Source: an uncultured bacterium
GTDB lineage: Bacteria; Patescibacteriota; Minisyncoccia; Phycocordibacterales; UBA11359
Assembly (NCBI GenBank): GCA_903831815.1
Contig: CAIKZC010000002.1
Span: forward strand, 7,244-71,243
DNA: 64,000 nucleotides
Direction of reading: 5' to 3'
Position numbers and translations under genes: made by a program. The notes under the pieces are model-generated. The model searched no databases. It saw only the letters and a list, made by a program, of their open reading frames with translations, and had not been told where the DNA came from. Of this stretch, positions 20,699 to 52,460 are shown piece after piece. Position 1 is the first letter of the stretch; each line of letters begins with the position of its first letter.

Positions 20699-23600
20699 CT
20701 AAACTTTTTTGAGTTGTACTGTAAGGTGAAGGTCTTCGGCGACCACGGGGGTGCCGGTCGTGTTTTGAACGAAGGACGGCGCACTGACCAAATTTACTTT
20801 TTTAACAAGTTCATCATTATATTTTTTAATAAAAGCCACCGTCATATCATCACCGGAAAATTCCATCGATGCCTTATCTTGCGGATTAAATTCCATCTCT
20901 TTACGAACCTCTTGAATAGCGCGCATGAGCTCGCGCAATTTCCCCTCTTCGATAAGTTCCGGTGTCATTTTAACATCAACAAGAACCGTAACATCGTTTG
21001 CCGTCATGCTTTCGTTATTTTTTTCTTTCAATCCTAAACTTCGCTTAACCAATTTTACGTTCAATTCCTCGGCAATGATCGACTCAAATTCCGGAGAAAG
21101 CATATTTTCCGCATCATATTCAATTCCAGCAAGCGGTTGACGAACTTTTTTGCCTTCTTTGGCTCTAAAAGCCAATCCAACTTCAACGATTTTTCGCACG
21201 GTGTTCATGTCGGTCAAAATTTTGACATCATAATTCTCACAAACCGGCCAAACACGTAAATGAACACTTTCAGCATCTGTTTCATTTTTAACTTTCTGGT
21301 AGATATCTTCGGCAATAAAAGGCATAAATGGTGCGATCAAAATTGAAAATTCAAACAAAACATATCGCATAGTAGCCAAGGCAGCCTCTTTGTCCGCAGC
21401 ATCGTCGCCTTTGAAACGATCACGTGATCGACGCAAATACCAAACGGAAAAATCTTCAATGAAATCATCAATCGGACGCGCCGCTTTGTCTAGCATGTAA
21501 GCGCCAAGAGCGCCGGTAATAGTGTTACAAGTTTGAGATAATCGAGCTAAAATCCAGCGGTCTAAGACATTTTCACTATTTTTGTAAGCTGCAGAATTGT
21601 CGGCATAAAGTGCGTAAAAAGAATAAATATTATTCAAACGCATCAAAAGTTTTTTAACGACCTCATCAAGACCTTTTTCGGAAAAGAGCAGTTCTTCGGA
21701 TTTTACGGCCGGACTCGACATCAAATAATAACGTAGAGCGTCGGCGGAATATTTATCGACGGCTGGCATTATTTCGGGAAAATTTTTCAATCTCTTGGAC
21801 ATCTTTTTGCCGTCTTCTGCCAAGACCAAACCGTTCACTATCACATTTTTGTATGGCGACTCATTGAAAAGCGCCACACCTAAAACAATCAAAGTGTAAA
21901 ACCATCCACGAGTCTGGTCTAGTCCTTCACCAATAAAATCAGCCGGGAAATTTTTGTGTTTTTCGGCATCAAAAACCGTTTTTTCAAAAGGATAATGATT
22001 TTGCGCATATGGCATCGAACCGGAATCGTACCAAGTATCAAAAACATCCAAGACACGCGCAAATTTACCGCCACACTCACAAGGCCATGAAATATCATCG
22101 ATATAAGGTCGATGGAGGTCAAGCTCCAATTTTTCATTGCGAGGGATATGATAGAAATGATGTTGCTTTACTTCTCCCGGATGCAAATAATCTTCATCTT
22201 TGGTTGCCGAAATTGCCAATATTTGTTTGCGAGTAAGCCCTTGCGCACCCATTCGCATAAAGAAAAGCGGATCGTCGTGACTTACGATCAAAATATTTTT
22301 ACCCTCATTTTCCTTATCAATGCCTATCAAAAATTCAGTCACGCGATTTCTCACGTTTTCCACCGTCTCCCCACCATTTGGTGCTTTGATATAGCGTTCC
22401 TCTTTATTTTTAAACAATGCATGATATTCCGCGCAACTTTTGCCATCCATTTCACCAACGTTCAATTCGCGAATTCGTTTATCAAAAATGATTTTTTCAA
22501 TCGGAAACCCAATCGTTTCCGCCACGATCTCGGCCGTTTCTTTGGTCCGAACAAAATCAGAAGCGTAGATAATATCGATTTTTTTGCCTTTCAAACTTTT
22601 AGCCGATTTCGCCACGTCATCTCTACCTTTTTCGGTAAGATGATGTTGATTTTCAACTTTTGAACTCAAAATATTTTTAACATTATGCTCGCCTTCGCCG
22701 TGACGCATCAGGAAATAAGTATTCGAGCTTCTAACCTTTTGTTTGAGGTCGTCGATCGAACCGAGTACTTCGATCTTTTTACATTCCTTGCAACGCCAGA
22801 TCGGCATGGCTGTACCCCAATATCGCTGTCGTGAAATACCCCAATCTTTGGCGCCTTCCAGCCAATTTCCAAAGCGCGCTTCACCGACATAATCCGGCAC
22901 CCAATGAATTTTATTATTTTCCGCAACCAAACGCTTTTTGATTTCAGTCACTTTTACGAACCATGAAGAAGTCGCATAGTTGAGAAGCGGCGTATCACAT
23001 CGCCAACAATGGGGATATGAGTGAATTATTTTTTCTTTAGCAAAAAGATTGCCCTTACCGGCCAAATATTTGATGATCTCGATATCGGCTTTTTGATGAT
23101 CGCCTTTCGGTTTTACGTCCTGCCCAGCAAATTCAATGACTTCCTTTTTAAATTTTCCGTCGGCGCTGACATGTTGAACAAATGGAATTTTTTTCTCCTG
23201 TGACAATTGCAGATCATCCTCGCCAAAACCGGGCGCAATATGCACTACTCCCGTACCATCTTCGATCGTGACAAATTCGGCTTCGTATACATGCCAAGCA
23301 TTCTCTTTGTTCGGCAATTCAGTATCTTTGTAATATGGAAAAATCGGTTCGTATGATTTACCGACCAATTTTGTACCCTTAAATTCATCTTCAACGGTAT
23401 ATGCCGACTTTATCGTCGACAATCGATTTTTGGCCAGAATAAGTTTAATGGTTTTTTCTGGATTTTTCTCATCAACGATGGAGATTTGGACATAATCAAT
23501 CTTCGAATTTACAGCTAAAGCAAAGTTACCAGGCAATGTCCAAGGTGTCGTCGTCCAAGCCAGCAAAAAAGTGTCCGGTACAATCTCGTCTTTTTTATCC

Positions 23601-24295
23601 TTCAACTGAAACTTCACATAAACCGAAATATCGGTGATATCTTTGTAACCTTGGTTGACTTCAAAGTTGGAAAGCGTCGTGCCGCAATGCGGACAGAGAT
23701 GCACCGATTTATAACCTTCGTAAGCCAGATCTTTTTTGAAAAGCTCTTTGAACGACCACCAAACGGATTCCATATAGGTCGAATCCATGGTCATATAATA
23801 ATTGTCCATGTCCACAAAACGACCGAGACGCGGAATTATTTTTTTCCAATCGGCGTAATATCGCAAAACGCTTTCGCGTGCGGCTTTGTTAAATTTTTCG
23901 ATACCGTATTCCTCGATCTCTTTTTTATTCTTAAGCCCAAGTTCCTTTTCGATCAAATTTTCTATCGGCAAGCCATGACAATCCCAACCCCAACGACGAG
24001 TGACGTGATAACCTTGCATCGTTTTGAAACGTGGGATCACATCTTTCATTGTGCCGGAAAGGATATGACCATAGTGTGGCAAACCGGTCGCAAATGGTGG
24101 ACCATCGTAAAAAGTAAACTCACCTTTTGGCGCGTCTTTTTGCAAAGTTTTTTCAAAAATTTTGCTTTCATCCCAAAAAGCCAAAATCTCTTCCTCGCGA
24201 GCGGCTAATGCGCTTTTCAAAGGAACTTCTTTCGCCGGTTTAACGGATTCACTTCCCTTTTCTTTTTTAACTTTGTCTGTCGCCATATATTGAAA
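20699..24295 (-). CDS. ileS: isoleucyl-tRNA synthetase carrying an internal histidine-phosphatase (PGAM-like) domain insertion of about 200 aa
   Basis: HIGH PFATGLPHYGH, KMSKS KMSKRLKNFP, editing domain. The insertion lies between WGISRQRYWG and VLDVFDTWYDSG and carries RHGEGEHN and ILIVSHDDPLFFMR motifs. Start taken at MATDK (24295); the track ORF extends to 24367. Confidence 0.85.
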   Translation of the reverse strand, partial: FQYMATDKVKKEKGSESVKPAKEVPLKSALAAREEEILAFWDESKIFEKTLQKDAPKGEFTFYDGPPFATGLPHYGHILSGTMKDVIPRFKTMQGYHVTRRWGWDCHGLPIENLIEKELGLKNKKEIEEYGIEKFNKAARESVLRYYADWKKIIPRLGRFVDMDNYYMTMDSTYMESVWWSFKELFKKDLAYEGYKSVHLCPHCGTTLSNFEVNQGYKDITDISVYVKFQLKDKKDEIVPDTFLLAWTTTPWTLPGNFALAVNSKIDYVQISIVDEKNPEKTIKLILAKNRLSTIKSAYTVEDEFKGTKLVGKSYEPIFPYYKDTELPNKENAWHVYEAEFVTIEDGTGVVHIAPGFGEDDLQLSQEKKIPFVQHVSADGKFKKEVIEFAGQDVKPKGDHQKADIEIIKYLAGKGNLFAKEKIIHSYPHCWRCDTPLLNYATSSWFVKVTEIKKRLVAENNKIHWVPDYVGEARFGNWLEGAKDWGISRQRYWGTAMPIWRCKECKKIEVLGSIDDLKQKVRSSNTYFLMRHGEGEHNVKNILSSKVENQHHLTEKGRDDVAKSAKSLKGKKIDIIYASDFVRTKETAEIVAETIGFPIEKIIFDKRIRELNVGEMDGKSCAEYHALFKNKEERYIKAPNGGETVENVRNRVTEFLIGIDKENEGKNILIVSHDDPLFFMRMGAQGLTRKQILAISATKDEDYLHPGEVKQHHFYHIPRNEKLELDLHRPYIDDISWPCECGGKFARVLDVFDTWYDSGSMPYAQNHYPFEKTVFDAEKHKNFPADFIGEGLDQTRGWFYTLIVLGVALFNESPYKNVIVNGLVLAEDGKKMSKRLKNFPEIMPAVDKYSADALRYYLMSSPAVKSEELLFSEKGLDEVVKKLLMRLNNIYSFYALYADNSAAYKNSENVLDRWILARLSQTCNTITGALGAYMLDKAARPIDDFIEDFSVWYLRRSRDRFKGDDAADKEAALATMRYVLFEFSILIAPFMPFIAEDIYQKVKNETDAESVHLRVWPVCENYDVKILTDMNTVRKIVEVGLAFRAKEGKKVRQPLAGIEYDAENMLSPEFESIIAEELNVKLVKRSLGLKEKNNESMTANDVTVLVDVKMTPELIEEGKLRELMRAIQEVRKEMEFNPQDKASMEFSGDDMTVAFIKKYNDELVKKVNLVSAPSFVQNTTGTPVVAEDLHLTVQLKKV

Positions 24296-24382
24296 CATAC
24301 TAGCATTTTTCCTGATTTTATAAAAGAAAAGCCCGACGGTAAAGTAACCGAAGGGCTGGAATGCCACGAATGCGAAACATTA

Positions 24383-46409: not shown

Positions 46410-47546
46410 TTAGTTTTTCTTATAGTATTTCTTGCCTTTCAATTTCTCCGGCAATAAGTCTTCCTTGGTATATTTCTCATAACCTTTTCCGTAATCAAGA
46501 TCTTTCATGAGTTTAGTTGGAGCATTCAGAATATTTAAAGGTATTGGCAAATTACCGAATTTTTTAGCGTCATCCAAAGCAGTCATGTAGGCATAATATG
46601 CCGACTTGTTTTTTGGCGCTTGTGAAAGATATACGACACCATGTCCCAAATTGATTCCCGCTTCGGGATATCCTATCGTCTCTACTGCTCTAAACACCGC
46701 ATTGGCCAACACCAAAGCGTGAGGGTCTTCCATACCGACATCTTCACTGGCAAAAATCACCATGCGCCGAGCAATAAATTTTGGGTCCTCCCCCGCTTCG
46801 ACCATACGAGCCAGATAATACAGCGCCGCATCCGGTTGACTGGCTCGCATGCTTTTTATAAAAGCGCTGATGGTGTTGTAGTGTTCATCGCCTTTTTTGT
46901 CATAACGCAAATATTTCGATTGCAGAGATTTCTTGAAATTTTCTATTGTCATCTCTCCGTACAATCTTTCGGTATTTTCGATCAAAGCGATAGCTTGTCG
47001 AGCATCACCACCCGATGCCGCCACGAGCCAATCCTCCACCTCTTTCGAAATATCAAAACCTGTACGTCCGATAATTGTTTTTATTTCATTCTCGGCCAAT
47101 TCGTTGAGCACAAAAACTTGGCAACGCGAGAGAAGTGCCGGGATAACTTCAAAACTCGGATTTTCGGTCGTTGCACCGATTAAAGTCAATTTACCGGATT
47201 CAACATAAGGCAAAAGAAAATCTTGTTGAGCTTTATTAAATCGATGAATCTCATCGAGAAACAATATTTTGGCGCCAAAAAGTCCGGCCGGTGCATTCAC
47301 GATTTCTCGAATATCATCTTTTCCGGCCGACACCGCCGAGAGCTCATGATATTCAGCCTTGAGCGATTTGGCGTATATTCTAGCCAACGTCGTCTTGCCG
47401 ACTCCGGGCGGTCCCCATAAAATAAAAGAGAAAAGATGTTTTTTGGCCACAGCAACGCCGATCGGTTTATCATCCCCGACCAAATGTTCCTGCCCGACAA
47501 ATTCAGAAAGGTCTTTCGGCCGTATCTTTGAAGCCAGCGGTTCCAT
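46410..47546 (-). CDS. rarA: replication-associated recombination protein A (AAA+ ATPase RarA/MgsA)
   Basis: Walker [10 protein letters not shown], Walker [11 protein letters not shown], sensor and arginine-finger regions, C-terminal MgsA helical domain. Confidence 0.85.
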
Positions 47547-47567: not shown

Positions 47568-48094
47568 CTAAATTAATCTCCTCTTTTTCTTATGAAGAAA
47601 TTCCAAGTCGCGAAGACGTTTTAGAGCCTCAAGACGCGTGCCGGAAGGACCACCAAGGTTCTTGCGAAGCCTTTCCGAAATGACGTAATATCCATTGCCT
47701 TTTTTAATAATCATAACGATACCCTGCCGTTTGCCAGGTGGAGAAATTACAACCAAAAAGAAGAGCTGGCGTAACGAAACGACAGCTCTGACAAATCGAC
47801 GATCGACAGCGAGCGAGGTCGTTATTGGACCGAACGCCTTTCTAACGTAATCTCGGCCTCCTTGGAACTTAACAGTTTCCATTCTGAGACGGAAAGATAT
47901 GGTCGCATACAATGAATCACTTCTTTGAGACTCAATCCCGTTTCCCCGATAAAACTCTCTGCCACTAGGACCAGCCCTCTTGATAATCCGGAGGATATAT
48001 CAATACGAGCAAATCTTTCATCTATTGAAGCTCGGTCAATCTTAACCCCAGTCTTGTTAGCTGACGGTAGTTCAGACATAATCCCCCCCTTCAT
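47568..48094 (-). pseudogene. two overlapping out-of-frame ORFs (90 aa + 114 aa), probably one frameshifted gene; the C-terminal part has a possible GIY-YIG-like nuclease motif
   Basis: The ORFs 47822..48094 and 47568..47912 overlap by about 90 nt in different frames on the same strand. A G7 homopolymer sits at the 5' end. The second ORF carries GIVMIIKKGNGYYVISERLRKNL. Confidence 0.3.
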
Positions 48095-48137: not shown

Positions 48138-50900
48138 TTACACCGGTTTAGCAACAATAGGCTCAGGTTTTTTGGAATATTTTTCGGCAATGTCGGCTTC
48201 GATTTCGGCGCGGTCGCGACCAAATTTTAGGAATGAAAGTTCTTTGAGAGCATCAAGGTGATCTTTTGAATTTACTGGTGGTGGTAAAGTTTCAATATTG
48301 AATGGTTTAACCGGACGGCCATCAACCAACAATTTTACGTAAGCATTTCGATTGTCGATGTTCATGATATCGGCGGCGAGAAACGGTTCAAATTGTTTGG
48401 CTAAAAACTCGGCATCTTCGGCACCGGTTCTAAAGGCGGCAATGGAGCCGACGTTACCGAACACGGCGTCACGAATATTTTCTTCAAGTTGAGCGATAAA
48501 TTGATGAGCAACGGTCAGCGACAATTTATACTTACGAGCTTCTGAAAGAATTGTGGCAATCGAGTCGGTGGTGACGTTTTGGAACTCATCGATATACAAA
48601 TAAAACGGTGGCAAATTTTTATCAACTGAATCAACTCGCGAAAGTGCAGACATCAAGATCTTGCCAACTAAAATGAGACCAATCAAATTGGCATTAATAT
48701 CACCGAGTCTACCTTTAGCCAAATTAACCAATAATATTTTTTTACCATCCATAACCTCACGGAAATTGAACGATGATTTCTGCTGTGAAATGATCGGCCG
48801 CATAATGTCGTTAGAAAGAAATACATCAAACTTGCTAGTGATATAAGGCACAATGTTGGCCAGCGACGCTTCCCCACCGGCTTTATCAGCCACCTCTTTC
48901 CAAAACTGAACCACAATCGGATTTTTGCAATGCGAAAGTTTCATTTCGCGGAAAGGTTTGTTGGCCAAAACTTTGGAAACATCGAGTAACGTATTCCCCG
49001 TTTCCGGATCTTCCATGACAAGCAAGACAGCATTTCTAAAATATTGTTCGAACATCGGACCGCCAGCCACTTTCATATCAAACAATTTATTGAAAATACT
49101 GAGCATCTCGTTGACCACAAAAGTTTTTTGCTCCGGATGATTTATATCGTACTCAAGCATGTTGATGGCCATTGGCCGCGCACTTTGACTTGGATCAAAA
49201 TAAATAACATCTTCGTAACGCTCTTTTGGCACAGCCGCCAAGACATCCAAAATATCAATGCCATGAGGGTCAATCATACAAACTCCGGCGCCTTGCTGAA
49301 TATCCTGAATAATCATGTTTTTGAGCATGGTTGATTTACCTGTTCCGGTCTGTCCAATGACATACAAGTGACGCAAACGGTCCTCAGCGGTCATATAGAC
49401 CTTAGTTTCAACGTTGCGGTGTCTATTAACCCCCATGAGCGTTCCAGAAGTCGGCATACCAACCGGTGCCGGAGCAGAGCCGGATTTTGCCTGTCGCAAT
49501 TGCGGAGCAGCATTACCAGTCGTTTGAAAGTGCATCAGCGAAGCCAGTTCGTGAATGTTGAGAGGAATTGATTCATCTTCATCAAAAATTCTAAAAGAAA
49601 AATCATGCAAGACGGCGTTGGTGGCGGACGTTTTCACTCGTTTAAATTTCAAACCGTTACCGAGCGTATTGTTGAACTGATTAAATGTCGCCTCAATTTC
49701 AGCCAGGATTTTTTCGGCATCAATTTCCGTTTGACCGGAAACCACAATTTTAATTGAAACTTCGACGATTGGATTGGAAACTTTTTTGGTTACAAGCTCG
49801 ATAGCTTGATCATCCATTTTTAACGGTTCTTTTTTCTCTTCTTCGTCTTTCTTTTTTTCGGTTTTAGCAAAAACGTCTCTTAATCCTTTCCAAACTTCGC
49901 CACCTATTGAATCCGGAACGTCCAACGCATCTTTTGTTTTTACCCCTTTGTGGAGTTGTTTCAATGCACCGCTGTAAAGTTTTACATAATGATCATCAGC
50001 CGGCCTGACCATCACCTGCAAACTGGCGCCCTCACCTATTTTCTTAATCTTGGAAAAACTATTTAAAATAATATTAAGTGGATCGTATTCAAATTCTTCA
50101 TAAGTCTTGATTGGATAGATGGATTTACCAGAAGATACAGCATACGAAACAACCGATACACCGGCTTCATCAAAAACATTGTAGTCGCCTGAAACTTCAA
50201 TAATTTTGGCATTAGGGAAAATAGCCAAAAGTTGTTTTTCAAAAAGATCTTTTTTGACATCCGGTACGGAAACATAAAATATCGATTCTTCGCTGTGATT
50301 TGGATTGGCGATTTCCAGAGAAAAATAATTGTCCTCAGCATTTTTGCCACCAGCAATCGAAAGCATGCCGGCATAAAACTGTTCCATTGAACCGATAAAT
50401 TCTTTCAATGTTTTCTCTTCAGACTGTTTATCGCCTTTGGGTAGTGCAATTTCAAAAAGCGTCATGTGCAAAGCCTTATACAAAGTGCTTTTATCTTTCA
50501 AACCATCTAAAGGAAAACCCTGTTTCAAATATTGCACCAAAAAGCGATGAAAATCGTCATCAATATGAGGATCATTTAACTTTTCGATAACGGAAAGTGT
50601 GTTCCAGATCCCCTTCTCCTGAAGGAGACCCAGTAATTCGGCAATTTTTTCATCATGTTCCTCCGGCTCTAAATCAAGGACGATTTTCTCGATTTTTTTA
50701 TCCGAGAGCTGCATTTTAGGATGCAAAACTTCGTTGATTGGCTGTTTTTTATATTCCTCAACTGTTTTTTGAACCAAAGAATGCATCTCTTGTCGCGTTT
50801 CGGCCGTGCTGGCGTGTTCATAGACTTTGGCCCGCAAATATTCAAGTTCTTCTTCCGGAGTTTTAAATACCGGTATTTCGTTTGTTTGAAGTTTCTCCAT
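48138..50900 (-). CDS. 920-aa soluble protein with C-terminal VirD4/TraG/TrwB-type coupling-protein (T4CP-like) P-loop ATPase domain
   Basis: Walker A YVIGQTGTGKST. Walker-B-like FYLYIDEFQNV. TVAHQ...FRTG region parallels TrwB's VVAGLQS...FRS. No predicted TM helices. The N-terminal 480 aa are unrecognised. Confidence 0.55.
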   Translation of the reverse strand: MEKLQTNEIPVFKTPEEELEYLRAKVYEHASTAETRQEMHSLVQKTVEEYKKQPINEVLHPKMQLSDKKIEKIVLDLEPEEHDEKIAELLGLLQEKGIWNTLSVIEKLNDPHIDDDFHRFLVQYLKQGFPLDGLKDKSTLYKALHMTLFEIALPKGDKQSEEKTLKEFIGSMEQFYAGMLSIAGGKNAEDNYFSLEIANPNHSEESIFYVSVPDVKKDLFEKQLLAIFPNAKIIEVSGDYNVFDEAGVSVVSYAVSSGKSIYPIKTYEEFEYDPLNIILNSFSKIKKIGEGASLQVMVRPADDHYVKLYSGALKQLHKGVKTKDALDVPDSIGGEVWKGLRDVFAKTEKKKDEEEKKEPLKMDDQAIELVTKKVSNPIVEVSIKIVVSGQTEIDAEKILAEIEATFNQFNNTLGNGLKFKRVKTSATNAVLHDFSFRIFDEDESIPLNIHELASLMHFQTTGNAAPQLRQAKSGSAPAPVGMPTSGTLMGVNRHRNVETKVYMTAEDRLRHLYVIGQTGTGKSTMLKNMIIQDIQQGAGVCMIDPHGIDILDVLAAVPKERYEDVIYFDPSQSARPMAINMLEYDINHPEQKTFVVNEMLSIFNKLFDMKVAGGPMFEQYFRNAVLLVMEDPETGNTLLDVSKVLANKPFREMKLSHCKNPIVVQFWKEVADKAGGEASLANIVPYITSKFDVFLSNDIMRPIISQQKSSFNFREVMDGKKILLVNLAKGRLGDINANLIGLILVGKILMSALSRVDSVDKNLPPFYLYIDEFQNVTTDSIATILSEARKYKLSLTVAHQFIAQLEENIRDAVFGNVGSIAAFRTGAEDAEFLAKQFEPFLAADIMNIDNRNAYVKLLVDGRPVKPFNIETLPPPVNSKDHLDALKELSFLKFGRDRAEIEADIAEKYSKKPEPIVAKPV

Positions 50901-50926
50901 AGGTTTATTATATCCTACCGTCGAGA

Positions 50927-52015
50927 TTATTTCACTTCGCCGAAAATTCTCTTGTGTATTTGTGAACTGAGTTCACCGGCAATTTTTTCGCCTATTTCCT
51001 TCCCGGAAAACAATAGATAATTATAATCGGACGGATAGCCAACCAGTTCCATAAAACCAACCCCATTTACATTTTTGCCAGCGATAGTTCCAGAAACCTC
51101 AAGCGGTCCTTCCCAATAATTTATAGCCAAAAAAATCATTTCCTGATCGGACATAAGCGATTTGACGTGCAATTTTGCCTCGTACTCAGGGATTTCAATA
51201 TCCCAAGACAATGGATATTCCGCCTTAGTTAATTTGCTTTGCCAAATATCTGCACCGGGTTTTAAAATTAAATTTGAGAAATGAAACGATTCGTTTGCCT
51301 TAGTAATTATATCCACCAAATTCCCTTTCTCCCTCTTGTCATCATATTCGCAACACATAATATCCGTGCCATTGTTGAGCTGGAGAGAAAACCACGTCCA
51401 TTTATCTTTTTTATATGACACATCCGCCCACTGATGATCAAACCACGATTTGCCTTTAACTTTTATTTCTTTGCCGTCAATGAGTAATGTACCCGAAGTT
51501 TCAAGATCGGTTAGTGAGTAGTAATAACTTTCTCTGCCACAAACAGTGATATGTCCCTCTCCTCCTTCGAGCAGAGCCGGCTTTTGCGATTTTAAAATTA
51601 AATCCAGTTTTTCGGTTTTGATATGAAAAACATCGTTTTCAATTTCGGCGATTTCATTATTTTCAAAACCTTTTAAAAGAATGGGATTGATATAATTCAC
51701 GAACAAACGCTCTTTGGTAAAACTATCGTTCGAGACCAACGAAACATTCTGAACTTCTTTATAATTTTTCTGATTTTCAAGGTCGGATACAACTGAATGG
51801 GCAAAACAAATATATTTTTTACCGCCAAGTATTTTATTTACTGGCAAATGTTTCAAATAAGGGATTTCTACATTTTCCACATCCACTCGAAAAAGGCAAT
51901 TCATAAAACTGTATTTATGACCGTTTTCGTCTTCTAATACGCCGTTAAAATACCACCATTCAACTATAGAATCGTGCTCCTTGTGATCTCGCGGAAAAAT
52001 AATTTTCTTATGCAT
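50927..52015 (-). CDS. AttH/CrtC-like (hydroxyneurosporene synthase family) protein
   Basis: N-terminal HKEHDSIVEWWYFNG motif and C-terminal ...INYWEGPLEVSGTIAGKNVNGVGFMELVGY, characteristic of the AttH/CrtC lipocalin-like family. Confidence 0.5.
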   Translation of the reverse strand: MHKKIIFPRDHKEHDSIVEWWYFNGVLEDENGHKYSFMNCLFRVDVENVEIPYLKHLPVNKILGGKKYICFAHSVVSDLENQKNYKEVQNVSLVSNDSFTKERLFVNYINPILLKGFENNEIAEIENDVFHIKTEKLDLILKSQKPALLEGGEGHITVCGRESYYYSLTDLETSGTLLIDGKEIKVKGKSWFDHQWADVSYKKDKWTWFSLQLNNGTDIMCCEYDDKREKGNLVDIITKANESFHFSNLILKPGADIWQSKLTKAEYPLSWDIEIPEYEAKLHVKSLMSDQEMIFLAINYWEGPLEVSGTIAGKNVNGVGFMELVGYPSDYNYLLFSGKEIGEKIAGELSSQIHKRIFGEVK

Positions 52016-52058: not shown

Positions 52059-52460
52059 TTATGACACTAATTGGGTGCAATGAGAACAACGACGAGCATC
52101 AATAGGAATTTCACTTAAACATTCTTTACATTTTTTGGTCGTAGGGTCGGGTGATGGTTCTTTGTGAGATCTGGAAACAAGCAAATTAATCGGTTTAACC
52201 ACAAAAAAGAAAATGGTCATTGCTACGAGAATAAAAGAAATCAGTGCATTAAGAAAATGACCATACATAAATTTACTGCCATTTATAGTGAATAAAAGTC
52301 CGCTAAAATCCGGGACTTTAGCTATAGCTGAAATAAATGGAGTTAAAATATCCGAAACCAGACTGGCTACTACAGAACTAAAAGCGGCGCCGATGACGAC
52401 ACCGACCGCCAAGTCAACAACATTACCGCGAAGTATAAATTGTTTAAATTCTTTTAACAT
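52059..52460 (-). CDS. mscL: large-conductance mechanosensitive channel MscL with C-terminal CxxC...CxxC extension
   Basis: FKQFILRGNVVDLAVGVVIGAAFSSVV matches the MscL TM1. C-terminus KKCKECLSEIPIDARRCSHCTQ has zinc-ribbon-like Cys pairs. Confidence 0.85.
   Translation of the reverse strand: MLKEFKQFILRGNVVDLAVGVVIGAAFSSVVASLVSDILTPFISAIAKVPDFSGLLFTINGSKFMYGHFLNALISFILVAMTIFFFVVKPINLLVSRSHKEPSPDPTTKKCKECLSEIPIDARRCSHCTQLVS

Follow-up and report, generated by a model that had tools for sequence, protein, structure and literature searches.

The locus studied here raises the question of what a coupling-type ATPase does in a genome where neither a relaxase nor a T4SS is encoded beside it. A large part of bacterial diversity belongs to the Patescibacteria, which live off host cells. 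Canonical coupling proteins (T4CPs), such as TrwB of R388, VirD4, TraD, DotL and Cag-beta, carry an N-terminal two-helix TMD and are encoded together with a relaxase and a T4SS.

In a recent survey, T4CP homologues were present in 2,918 of 3,035 Patescibacteria genomes (96%) and VirB4 in 80% (Quinonero-Coronel et al. 2025, PMC12102498). Clusters of VirB4/TrsD/VirB3/VirB6/VirB2, related to monoderm (Gram-positive-type) T4SSs, were found in 2,417 genomes, 148 of 5,713 T4CP homologues lay near virB4, relaxases were almost absent, and the authors raised exaptation of the T4CP homologues (PMC12102498). The T4CP homologue of S. epibionticum is non-essential and its T4SS genes are essential (PMC12102498). 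The Patescibacteria T4SS proved essential in the one species tested, and its cluster is without a recognisable coupling protein or relaxase (PMC10633639).

Architecture of the 920-aa protein

The gene lies on the minus strand at 48138..50900 of the window, by which we mean the whole 64-kb stretch of DNA analysed. It is a complete, intact ORF of 920 aa plus stop with an ATG start and encodes a DUF8128-T4CP-like ATPase, which represents the 'long, soluble' version of the T4CP homologue of Patescibacteria. Over 1800 Patescibacteria homologues have a length of about 910-970 aa, and other metagenome contigs encode an identical protein. The start codon is supported by conservation of the N-terminus, M1 being nearly invariant and E18, L22 and R23 invariant in close homologues. 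Just 5' of it a tentative promoter-like hexamer pair, GTGAAA-17-TATAAT (50907..50935, minus strand), overlaps the end of the CrtC-like gene. Promoter-like sites in the region number 21 versus 15.5 +/- 4.0 in shuffles, an excess that is not significant, and we therefore treat the pair as a lead only.

The motifs which the initial annotation had read in this ORF are all in place, namely the Walker A YVIGQTGTGKST (residues 513-524), the DExx-like box FYLYIDEFQNV (766-776) and the TVAHQ (796-800) and FRTG (823-826) segments. Across 42 diverse homologues G516, T518, G519, G521, K522, D771/E772 and H799/Q800 show little or no variation. Residues ~481-881 (48258..49460, minus strand) are predicted to form a RecA-like P-loop ATPase domain of the VirB4/T4CP group, with Walker A at 516-523, Walker B at 767-772, an AHQ sensor-like motif at 798-800 and an all-helical insertion at ~591-720, which corresponds to the all-alpha domain inserted in the NBD of T4CPs. 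A C-terminal helix pair (882-893 and 897-908 in the model) and a short variable tail complete the protein (residues ~882-920; 48141..48257, minus strand). Confidence of the model (pLDDT) falls after residue 910; close homologues share K886, S889 and G894 as conserved positions.

T4CP sequence models recognise this NBD. The 920-aa protein passes the Pfam cut-offs of T4SS-DNA_transf (PF02534; 29.6 bits, cut-off 20.1, residues 502-808), TraG-D_C (PF12696; 26.2, cut-off 22) and TrwB_AAD_bind (PF10412; 21.6, cut-off 20.5), and a 62%-identical member is matched by CONJscan t4cp1. TraG-D_C matches 37 of 42 family members and TrwB_AAD_bind 35 of 42. The best matches among PDB sequences are TrwB and DotL. 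NCBIfam equivalog cut-offs for T4CPs are not reached (SXT_TraD, 53 bits versus 366), nor are the curated Pfam cut-offs of FtsK_SpoIIIE and HerA_C; HerA and FtsK family models and the accessory domains of these proteins (the HAS barrel of HerA; 4TM, alpha and gamma of FtsK) are likewise without a counterpart. In predicted structure the ATPase domain fits VirB4, DptH, TrwB and HerA about equally. Assignment to a VirD4/TrwB-type ATPase, as originally proposed, is thus borne out by the T4CP Pfam cut-offs, but structure places the domain about equally close to VirB4, DptH and HerA. Sequence profiles gave no HerA/FtsK placement and a Kyte-Doolittle scan no missed TM helices, the two results by which that assignment could have fallen. 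To judge from sequence, the C-terminal ~430 aa are a P-loop ATPase of the VirB4/T4CP branch, and we regard this as supported.

The protein had also been described as soluble, and the Kyte-Doolittle scan (19-residue window) agrees, as residues 1-480 hold no TM-like segment. Its sole peak, 1.8 at residues 735-753 (INANLIGLILVGKILMSAL), contains Lys and belongs to the ATPase core, directly ahead of Walker B. The N-terminal transmembrane anchor of T4CPs is therefore missing. This is not disqualifying, because T4CPs without a TMD are an accepted subclass, class iii of Llosa and Alkorta 2017 as cited in PMC7431656. A TM helix is absent in all 139 long-form relatives. Short-form CPR relatives carry a single N-terminal TM helix in 8 of 9 cases in one set and 23 of 39 in another, which points to action at the membrane.

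What the long form has at its N-terminus is a helical module (residues ~7-127; 50520..50882, minus strand) without a Pfam match, in which the motif DPH-x-DDFH-RFLV is conserved and helices span residues 15-126 of the structure model. It is homologous to a separate soluble protein of ~138 aa, which short-form relatives encode in a gene of its own just upstream of the ATPase gene; such an adjacent partner gene, with gaps of -4 to ~20 nt, is present in 39-43 of 74 short-form loci. An HMM of 44 such upstream small proteins matches residues 7-127 of the 920-aa protein (E = 6.3e-15) and 144 of 145 long-form proteins, and hhalign aligns the 44-member alignment with the module at 98.8% probability (E = 6.8e-17). 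The relationship is clear only with this 44-member alignment: the small proteins of loci L084 and L086 gave hhalign E-values of 0.38 and 0.022 against the N-terminal extension and no match in default hmmsearch. This homology to a separately encoded upstream protein identifies the long form, at the level of sequence comparison, as a gene fusion of the partner protein with the DUF8128-ATPase.

Between module and ATPase lies the core of DUF8128 (PF26449; residues ~135-470; 49491..50498, minus strand), consisting of two alpha/beta subdomains with a disordered Lys/Glu-rich loop (~340-362) between them. Precomputed annotation of an identical protein carries the PF26449 match without a weak or faint mark. 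A full-text literature search for 'DUF8128' found no paper. Two structural methods agree that the modelled fold is that of the N-terminal domain of VirB4/TrwK, and the 920-aa protein thereby appears to share the N-terminal domain fold of VirB4. A link between NTD and VirB4 at the sequence level was rejected, since a profile of 46 NTDs retrieved no VirB4 and nothing relevant from PDB sequences at E <= 10 and tblastn of the NTD against plasmids gave no match. The NTD-VirB4 link is thus one of predicted structure, and profile-profile comparison ties the NTD to the plasmid relatives described below. The earlier view that the N-terminal region has no recognisable domain has to be abandoned in favour of PF26449 with its VirB4-NTD-like fold and, in front of it, a module homologous to the upstream protein.

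A two-domain architecture of this kind is that of VirB4, and it speaks for a second VirB4-type assembly ATPase, which would power VirB2-like pili or T4SS assembly beside canonical VirB4 or in its place. In one short-form locus, moreover, the next gene encodes a borderline T4SS_pilin domain (25.8 bits versus a cut-off of 26.6). VirB4 models, however, fail to recognise the 920-aa protein (TIGR00929, 19.5 bits versus a cut-off of 643; no PF03135 (CagE_TrbE_VirB) match at E <= 1), whereas T4CP models do, and the structural match of the modelled CTD is better for VirB4 than for TrwB by a small margin (29.8 versus 27.5). Plasmid relatives, too, occupy the T4CP position by the relaxase, with a separate AAA_10 VirB4-like protein in the module. 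We consider a second assembly ATPase improbable.

Relatives in Patescibacteria and on Gram-positive plasmids

KKR53198.1 (917 aa) is 62% identical to the 920-aa protein; Table S3 of PMC12102498 records it as a T4CP that is matched by profile t4cp1 with 86% coverage and does not lie near virB4. The 920-aa protein belongs to the same family as the Patescibacteria T4CP homologues already catalogued there; we see no family-level difference, and in both cases the genes are chromosomal and unlinked from virB4. That survey gives no architecture, and the VirB4-like DUF8128 fold, the fused partner module, the split into TM and soluble forms and the synteny are new with respect to it. The DUF8128-ATPase family is conserved like ribosomal proteins: at ~56%, its pairwise identity is the same as for S5, L6, L18, L15, Map and Ndk when these are compared between the same pairs of genomes. 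In the loci examined the gene is apparently mostly single-copy.

Outside the CPR, relatives are found on plasmids of Bacillaceae and Staphylococcus. Shouchella clausii plasmid NZ_CP012476.1 encodes a soluble 883-aa DUF87/DUF8128 protein (WP_248290882.1) with intact Walker motifs, which aligns with the DUF8128 and ATPase parts of the 920-aa protein over 661 columns (E = 1.9e-39, ~26% identity) and with the NTD alone at 94% probability (E = 1.1e-7). When it is used as query, CPR proteins are hit with E-values from 1e-50 to 1e-38. Its gene is flanked by a primase and a Replic_Relax gene, after which come TcpC, TcpE and a VirB4-like gene of the AAA_10 type. The linkage to a relaxase and/or T4SS expected of T4CPs is therefore present in the plasmid relatives. 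A homologue on S. aureus plasmid pJRA307-1 has the same gene order as the S. clausii plasmid; with the NTD it gave a non-significant hhalign E-value of 0.08. Many Bacillaceae homologues carry precomputed PF26449. Over most of its length the 920-aa protein is related, as these alignments indicate, to putative coupling proteins of Gram-positive conjugative plasmids. A homologue on a ~65-kb B. subtilis plasmid was considered as the T4CP of pLS20 and rejected: pLS20 gene 48 encodes 786 aa with two TM helices, and the plasmids found carry Tcp-type genes. The closest plasmid match to the CTD (36% identity) is a Bradyrhizobium protein without DUF8128, encoded among CHAT and TPR genes.

Genomic context and proposed role

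The gene is flanked by a CrtC/lipocalin (AttH-like) gene (50927-52015), MscL (52059-52460) and RarA/MgsA (46410-47546), and a class II ribonucleotide reductase is also close by. The initial annotation had seen these neighbours and no conjugation or T4SS genes nearby, and the picture holds on a wider scale. No VirB4-, TcpC-, TcpE- or relaxase-like ORF occurs in the entire 64-kb window, no T4SS component or relaxase homologue lies within +/-10 kb of the gene in about 165 loci, and the VirB4 companions VirB3, VirB6 and VirB8 are absent from the window and the loci examined. There are no paralogous ATPases near the gene; the other Walker-A proteins of the window with assigned families are FtsK, RecA and RarA only. 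Related genomes hold a separate VirB3-TrsD-VirB4 cluster. In Paceibacteria loci SecY-Adk-Map lies upstream of the gene and Ndk downstream, and in about 40-47% of those with enough flank the gene closes the spc ribosomal operon and precedes ndk. Short-form lineages have GtrA-like and DnaX genes downstream. The dnaX linkage is limited to these lineages.

By analogy with known ring ATPases, the 920-aa product most likely works for the unlinked Patescibacteria T4SS as a hexameric translocation motor. It would form a ring, like its structural relatives VirB4, TrwB and HerA, and ATP hydrolysis would feed a polymer, which may be an unfolded protein or a nucleic acid, to a membrane channel. The single N-terminal TM helix may serve to tether the ring in the short form. 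In the long form this task would fall to the fused partner module together with the VirB4-like domain; the most plausible docking site is the VirB4/VirB3/VirB6 platform of the relaxase-less T4SS, whose genes lie at another place in the chromosome. The ancestor of the family was probably a conjugative coupling protein of the Gram-positive type, which became domesticated as a vertically inherited core gene. This explanation as a whole, a domesticated coupling-type ring motor of three modules presumed to dock on the relaxase-less T4SS, is offered tentatively, with doubt slightly outweighing confidence. Counting against a T4SS role are the missing T4SS linkage in about 165 loci, a spread wider than that of VirB4, the housekeeping neighbours and, if it is of the DUF8128 family, the non-essential T4CP homologue of S. 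epibionticum.

The same observations lend themselves to a motor exapted for a core task without the T4SS, such as movement or import of nucleic acid (host DNA or RNA) or replication-linked chromosome handling, together with the small partner and some membrane protein. A spread over 96% of genomes, as opposed to 80% with VirB4, with virB4 linkage almost never seen and exaptation already raised (PMC12102498), fits such a task, as do evolution as slow as that of ribosomal proteins, the position at the spc operon end before ndk, the 31 of 84 short-form loci with dnaX no more than six genes downstream, and RarA and ribonucleotide reductase close by in the window. That growth of Patescibacteria is based on the import of host RNA has been put forward in a 2026 preprint, which names no importer. 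Synteny with ubiquitous housekeeping genes in tiny genomes of related lineages may, however, be functionally meaningless. Moreover, dnaX and rarA linkage is absent from 80 Paceibacteria loci, the window also encodes a canonical FtsK, and the closest non-CPR relatives with DUF8128 plus ATPase sit in conjugation modules. An indispensable core role would also be at odds with the S. epibionticum homologue, again provided that it is of the DUF8128 family. We judge a T4SS-independent task unlikely, yet a serious contender. A bolder account, which we consider distinctly doubtful, has a Gram-positive conjugative coupling protein and its small partner domesticated as a T4SS-independent housekeeping motor, e.g. 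a host DNA/RNA uptake engine for nucleotide-auxotrophic epibionts or a DNA translocase linked to replication; as a separate point, the family would by its VirB4-like NTD be a surviving VirB4/T4CP intermediate.

A defence-type or conflict-system NTPase, as the initial annotation had suggested among other roles, would be akin to MADS Mad8 or the C-terminal domain of DptH. PADLOC reports a mad8 match (E = 3e-14, residues 510-812), and the Bradyrhizobium protein has its CHAT and TPR neighbours, but lacks DUF8128. Neither the window nor about 165 loci contain partner defence genes of these systems, and the family is near-universal, vertically inherited, conserved like ribosomal proteins and found inside housekeeping operons. 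The MADS paper assigns no function to mad8, and the genomic context speaks against a defence reading by way of Mad8, which we regard as very improbable.

Coming back to the preferred T4SS-serving motor, the DUF8128-ATPase family is the only candidate coupling motor of the Patescibacteria T4SS and is more widely spread than VirB4. It bears on the passage of macromolecules between host and epibiont and on the divergence of VirB4 and coupling proteins. Handles for experiments are the three-module architecture, the candidate partner in separate or fused form, the VirB4-like putative docking domain and the tractable plasmid relatives in Bacillaceae.

Comparison with known systems

Canonical T4CPs (TrwB, VirD4, TraD, DotL, Cag-beta) differ from the 920-aa protein in having no DUF8128 domain, and their identity to it is ~15%. 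In contrast to VirB4 (TrwK of R388; VirB4 of Thermoanaerobacter pseudethanolicus), the gene has no sequence-level membership in that family and does not lie beside VirB3/VirB6, and its TraG-D_C signature is that of T4CPs. Patescibacteria genomes and plasmid modules contain distinct, bona fide VirB4 proteins apart from this family. The S. clausii plasmid protein has in common with the 920-aa protein DUF8128 plus ATPase, intact Walker motifs and no TM helix. The Bacillaceae proteins differ in being plasmid-borne beside Replic_Relax, TcpC, TcpE and VirB4-like genes, in lacking the ~130-aa N-terminal partner module and in having an acidic C-terminal tail; we know of no experimental characterisation of them. 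TraJ of pIP501, likened here by its description, is similarly a coupling-type ATPase without its own membrane anchor that is presumed to be recruited by a partner. The partner of TraJ is the membrane protein TraI, whereas the candidate partner of the DUF8128-ATPase family is a soluble helical protein, here fused to its ATPase.

Architecture of the DUF8128-ATPase

The gene at 48138-50900, for which the initial annotation gave a 920-aa protein, is an unbroken open reading frame (ORF) of 920 codons on the reverse strand with an ATG start. It encodes an intact, soluble ATPase of three modules: a helical partner module fused at the N-terminus (residues ~7-127), a DUF8128 domain (~135-470) and a RecA-like ATPase domain (~481-881). 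The motifs quoted earlier are all found; among 42 diverse homologues there is little or no variation in Walker A (GQTGTGKS at 516-523), in Walker B (D771/E772) or in the AHQ motif (798-800). A Kyte-Doolittle scan detected no transmembrane (TM)-like segment in residues 1-480, in line with the soluble character proposed before, and the sole hydrophobic peak (735-753) lies within the ATPase core and includes a lysine.

The proposed affiliation of the ATPase domain with type IV coupling proteins (T4CPs) is borne out by sequence models, which place it with the T4CP families. PF02534 (aligned to residues 502-808), PF12696 and PF10412 scored above their Pfam cut-offs and FtsK_SpoIIIE and HerA_C below theirs, a pattern repeated across 42 family members. 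The top NCBIfam matches were SXT_TraD and VirD4-like CD1115, both well under their equivalog cut-offs, and the nearest PDB sequences are TrwB and DotL. Since the window also encodes a canonical FtsK with 4TM, alpha, motor and gamma domains, this ATPase is not the FtsK of the cell.

The N-terminal region had been described as lacking any recognisable domain, which does not hold. Precomputed annotation assigns it PF26449 (DUF8128), besides DUF87, T4SS-DNA_transf and TraG-D_C in the same protein. Residues 1-488 were modelled with AF2 from 56 diverse sequences, and the model is confident (pLDDT 85.8, pTM 0.77). As an independent result, a Foldseek search with this model gave 14 chains of TrwK, the VirB4 of R388, as the only matches at E <= 1e-3; since no P-loop domain is part of the model, it is the N-terminal domain of VirB4 that is matched. 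The DUF8128 domain shows a VirB4-like fold in the model. A VirB4-like role in assembly appears improbable to us; VirB4_CagE (NCBIfam) reached just 19.5 bits with the window protein.

A phmmer search of the whole library with residues 1-480 as query returned 1048 clusters, in which relatives of ~800 aa (short forms) match only from query residue ~130-145 onwards. A single N-terminal TM helix is present in 8 of 9 short forms versus 0 of 139 long forms, the soluble type to which the window protein belongs. Among 80 metagenomic short-form loci, the ATPase gene is directly preceded on its own strand by a gene for a soluble helical protein of ~138 aa (39-43 of the 74 loci with enough flank; gaps of -4 to ~20 nt). 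An HMM of these small proteins matches residues 7-127 of the window protein (E = 6.3e-15) and 144 of 145 long forms, and hhalign aligns them with the long-form N-terminus (probability 98.8%, E = 6.8e-17). Therefore the long form is a fusion of partner and ATPase in which the TM helix was lost.

Family and chromosomal context

More than 1800 homologues (~910-970 aa, ~60% identity) were found. All named ones are from Patescibacteria (CPR), including Taylorbacteria, Parcubacteria and Paceibacterota, and lie on contigs as long as 1 Mb; a close relative is present in more than 531 GTDB species genomes. Quinonero-Coronel et al. (2025) counted 5,713 VirD4-type T4CP homologues, spread over 2,918 of 3,035 Patescibacteria genomes and near virB4 in only 148 cases, and raised exaptation as a possibility (PMC12102498). 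Their Table S3 enters KKR53198.1 as T4CP (t4cp1, 86% coverage, not near virB4); this protein and the window protein share 62% identity, so the family is already catalogued. The window protein hence belongs to the DUF8128 or "Patescibacteria T4CP homologue" family, which is known yet uncharacterised. Our literature search found no paper naming DUF8128, and as far as the searchable literature goes the architecture reported here, like the function, is without prior description.

In the window the ATPase gene is surrounded, as initially annotated, by genes for CrtC/lipocalin (AttH-like), MscL and RarA; its isolation from conjugation genes extends to the whole 64 kb, where no VirB4-, TcpC-, TcpE- or relaxase-like ORF was found. 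A small ORF (47822-48094, reverse strand) follows ~45 nt downstream on the same strand; counted from its first ATG it encodes 90 aa, and other assemblies annotate it as an 85-aa gene. It has no Pfam match and is absent from the conserved neighbours in 80 Paceibacteria loci. MscL (52059-52460, reverse strand) carries a C-terminal Cys-rich, zinc-ribbon-like tail (25.8 bits to UPF0547, slightly under the cut-off of 29). Elsewhere in the window, a histidine-phosphatase domain (His_Phos_1, residues 552-717, E = 1.8e-31) splits the catalytic tRNA-synt_1 domain of an IleRS-like class I tRNA synthetase of 1222 aa (20699-24367, reverse strand) into two halves, which is unusual as an insertion or fusion.

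The typical order in the 80 Paceibacteria loci is L6-L18-S5-L15-SecY-Adk-Map, ATPase, Ndk on a single strand; with enough flank, Map lies upstream in 22 of 58 and Ndk downstream in 26 of 55. In short-form lineages the next gene encodes a GtrA-like membrane protein, and in 31 of 84 loci DnaX is among the six genes that follow. With a median identity of ~56%, the ATPase is level with S5, L6, L18, L15, Map and Ndk in the same genome pairs and ahead of Adk, though its value may be slightly inflated because loci were chosen for their resemblance to the query. Conservation and context are housekeeping-like.

No paralogous ATPase or type IV secretion system (T4SS) gene was found near the family gene in any locus examined. 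The sole hint of T4SS linkage is a borderline T4SS_pilin match (residues 214-272; 25.8 bits, cut-off 26.6) in a 673-aa protein encoded immediately downstream of a short-form ATPase (locus L088, 10558-12579). In another genome (locus L084, 6915-16573) the short-form ATPase lies inside a tight same-strand block with genes for an FtsQ-like POTRA protein, a 635-aa PMT/ArnT-like multi-TM protein, the small partner, two paralogous membrane proteins of ~240-250 aa, two multi-TM proteins and a 529-aa Pro-rich secreted protein. Most of these proteins have no Pfam family, and the block may be a lineage-specific envelope module.

A possible motor for an unlinked secretion system

We tentatively favour a motor coupled to an unlinked, relaxase-less T4SS of Patescibacteria, a reading to which we give somewhat less than even chances. 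The subunits would form a ring translocating a polymer, with the VirB4-like domain and the partner module docking the ATPase on the T4SS. A core role independent of T4SS is rather unlikely in our judgement; it draws support from the higher genome occupancy of T4CP homologues (96% versus 80% for VirB4), from the missing linkage to T4SS genes and from the report, on one species, that the S. epibionticum T4CP homologue is not essential (PMC12102498). The defence and competence functions suggested initially found no support, and we regard a defence NTPase as very improbable.

Relatives on plasmids

A tblastn search of plasmids with the ATPase domain yielded 667 records in three groups: orphan ATPases of Alphaproteobacteria (34-35% identity), TraG-like proteins of haloarchaeal, Sulfolobus and Thermococcus plasmids, and "DUF87" proteins of Bacillaceae and Staphylococcus plasmids. 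One of the alphaproteobacterial proteins, encoded on Bradyrhizobium sp. 131 plasmid p131_1 (locus L171, 7059-9185) and 708 aa long, shares 36% identity with the CPR ATPase domain over its C-terminal 400 aa; its ~290-aa N-terminus is unrelated and without DUF8128, and CHAT-domain and TPR genes flank it. It could represent a branch of this ATPase subfamily that serves a conflict system.

An 883-aa protein without TM helix, encoded on a Shouchella clausii plasmid, can be aligned to the CPR family over the DUF8128 and the ATPase domain alike (661 columns, E = 1.9e-39). Residues 1-330 suffice for a match to the N-terminal profile of the CPR family (probability 94%, E = 1.1e-7, 271 columns), and a search with the plasmid protein brings up CPR proteins from Gracilibacteria and Altimarinota at E-values of 1e-50 to 1e-38. 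PF26449 is precomputed on many Bacillaceae homologues. The Shouchella gene stands between genes for a primase and Replic_Relax, with TcpC, TcpE and an AAA_10 VirB4-like ATPase next in order; in a Tcp-type conjugation module this is the place of the coupling protein. S. aureus pJRA307-1 has the same gene order; the N-terminal similarity of its protein to the CPR family is not significant. None of the 58 full-length Firmicutes-type proteins examined has a TM helix. The pLS20 T4CP is a different protein, and it is to that protein that two TM helices belong. In its DUF8128 domain as well as in its ATPase domain, the window family has a plasmid homologue encoded at the coupling-protein position.
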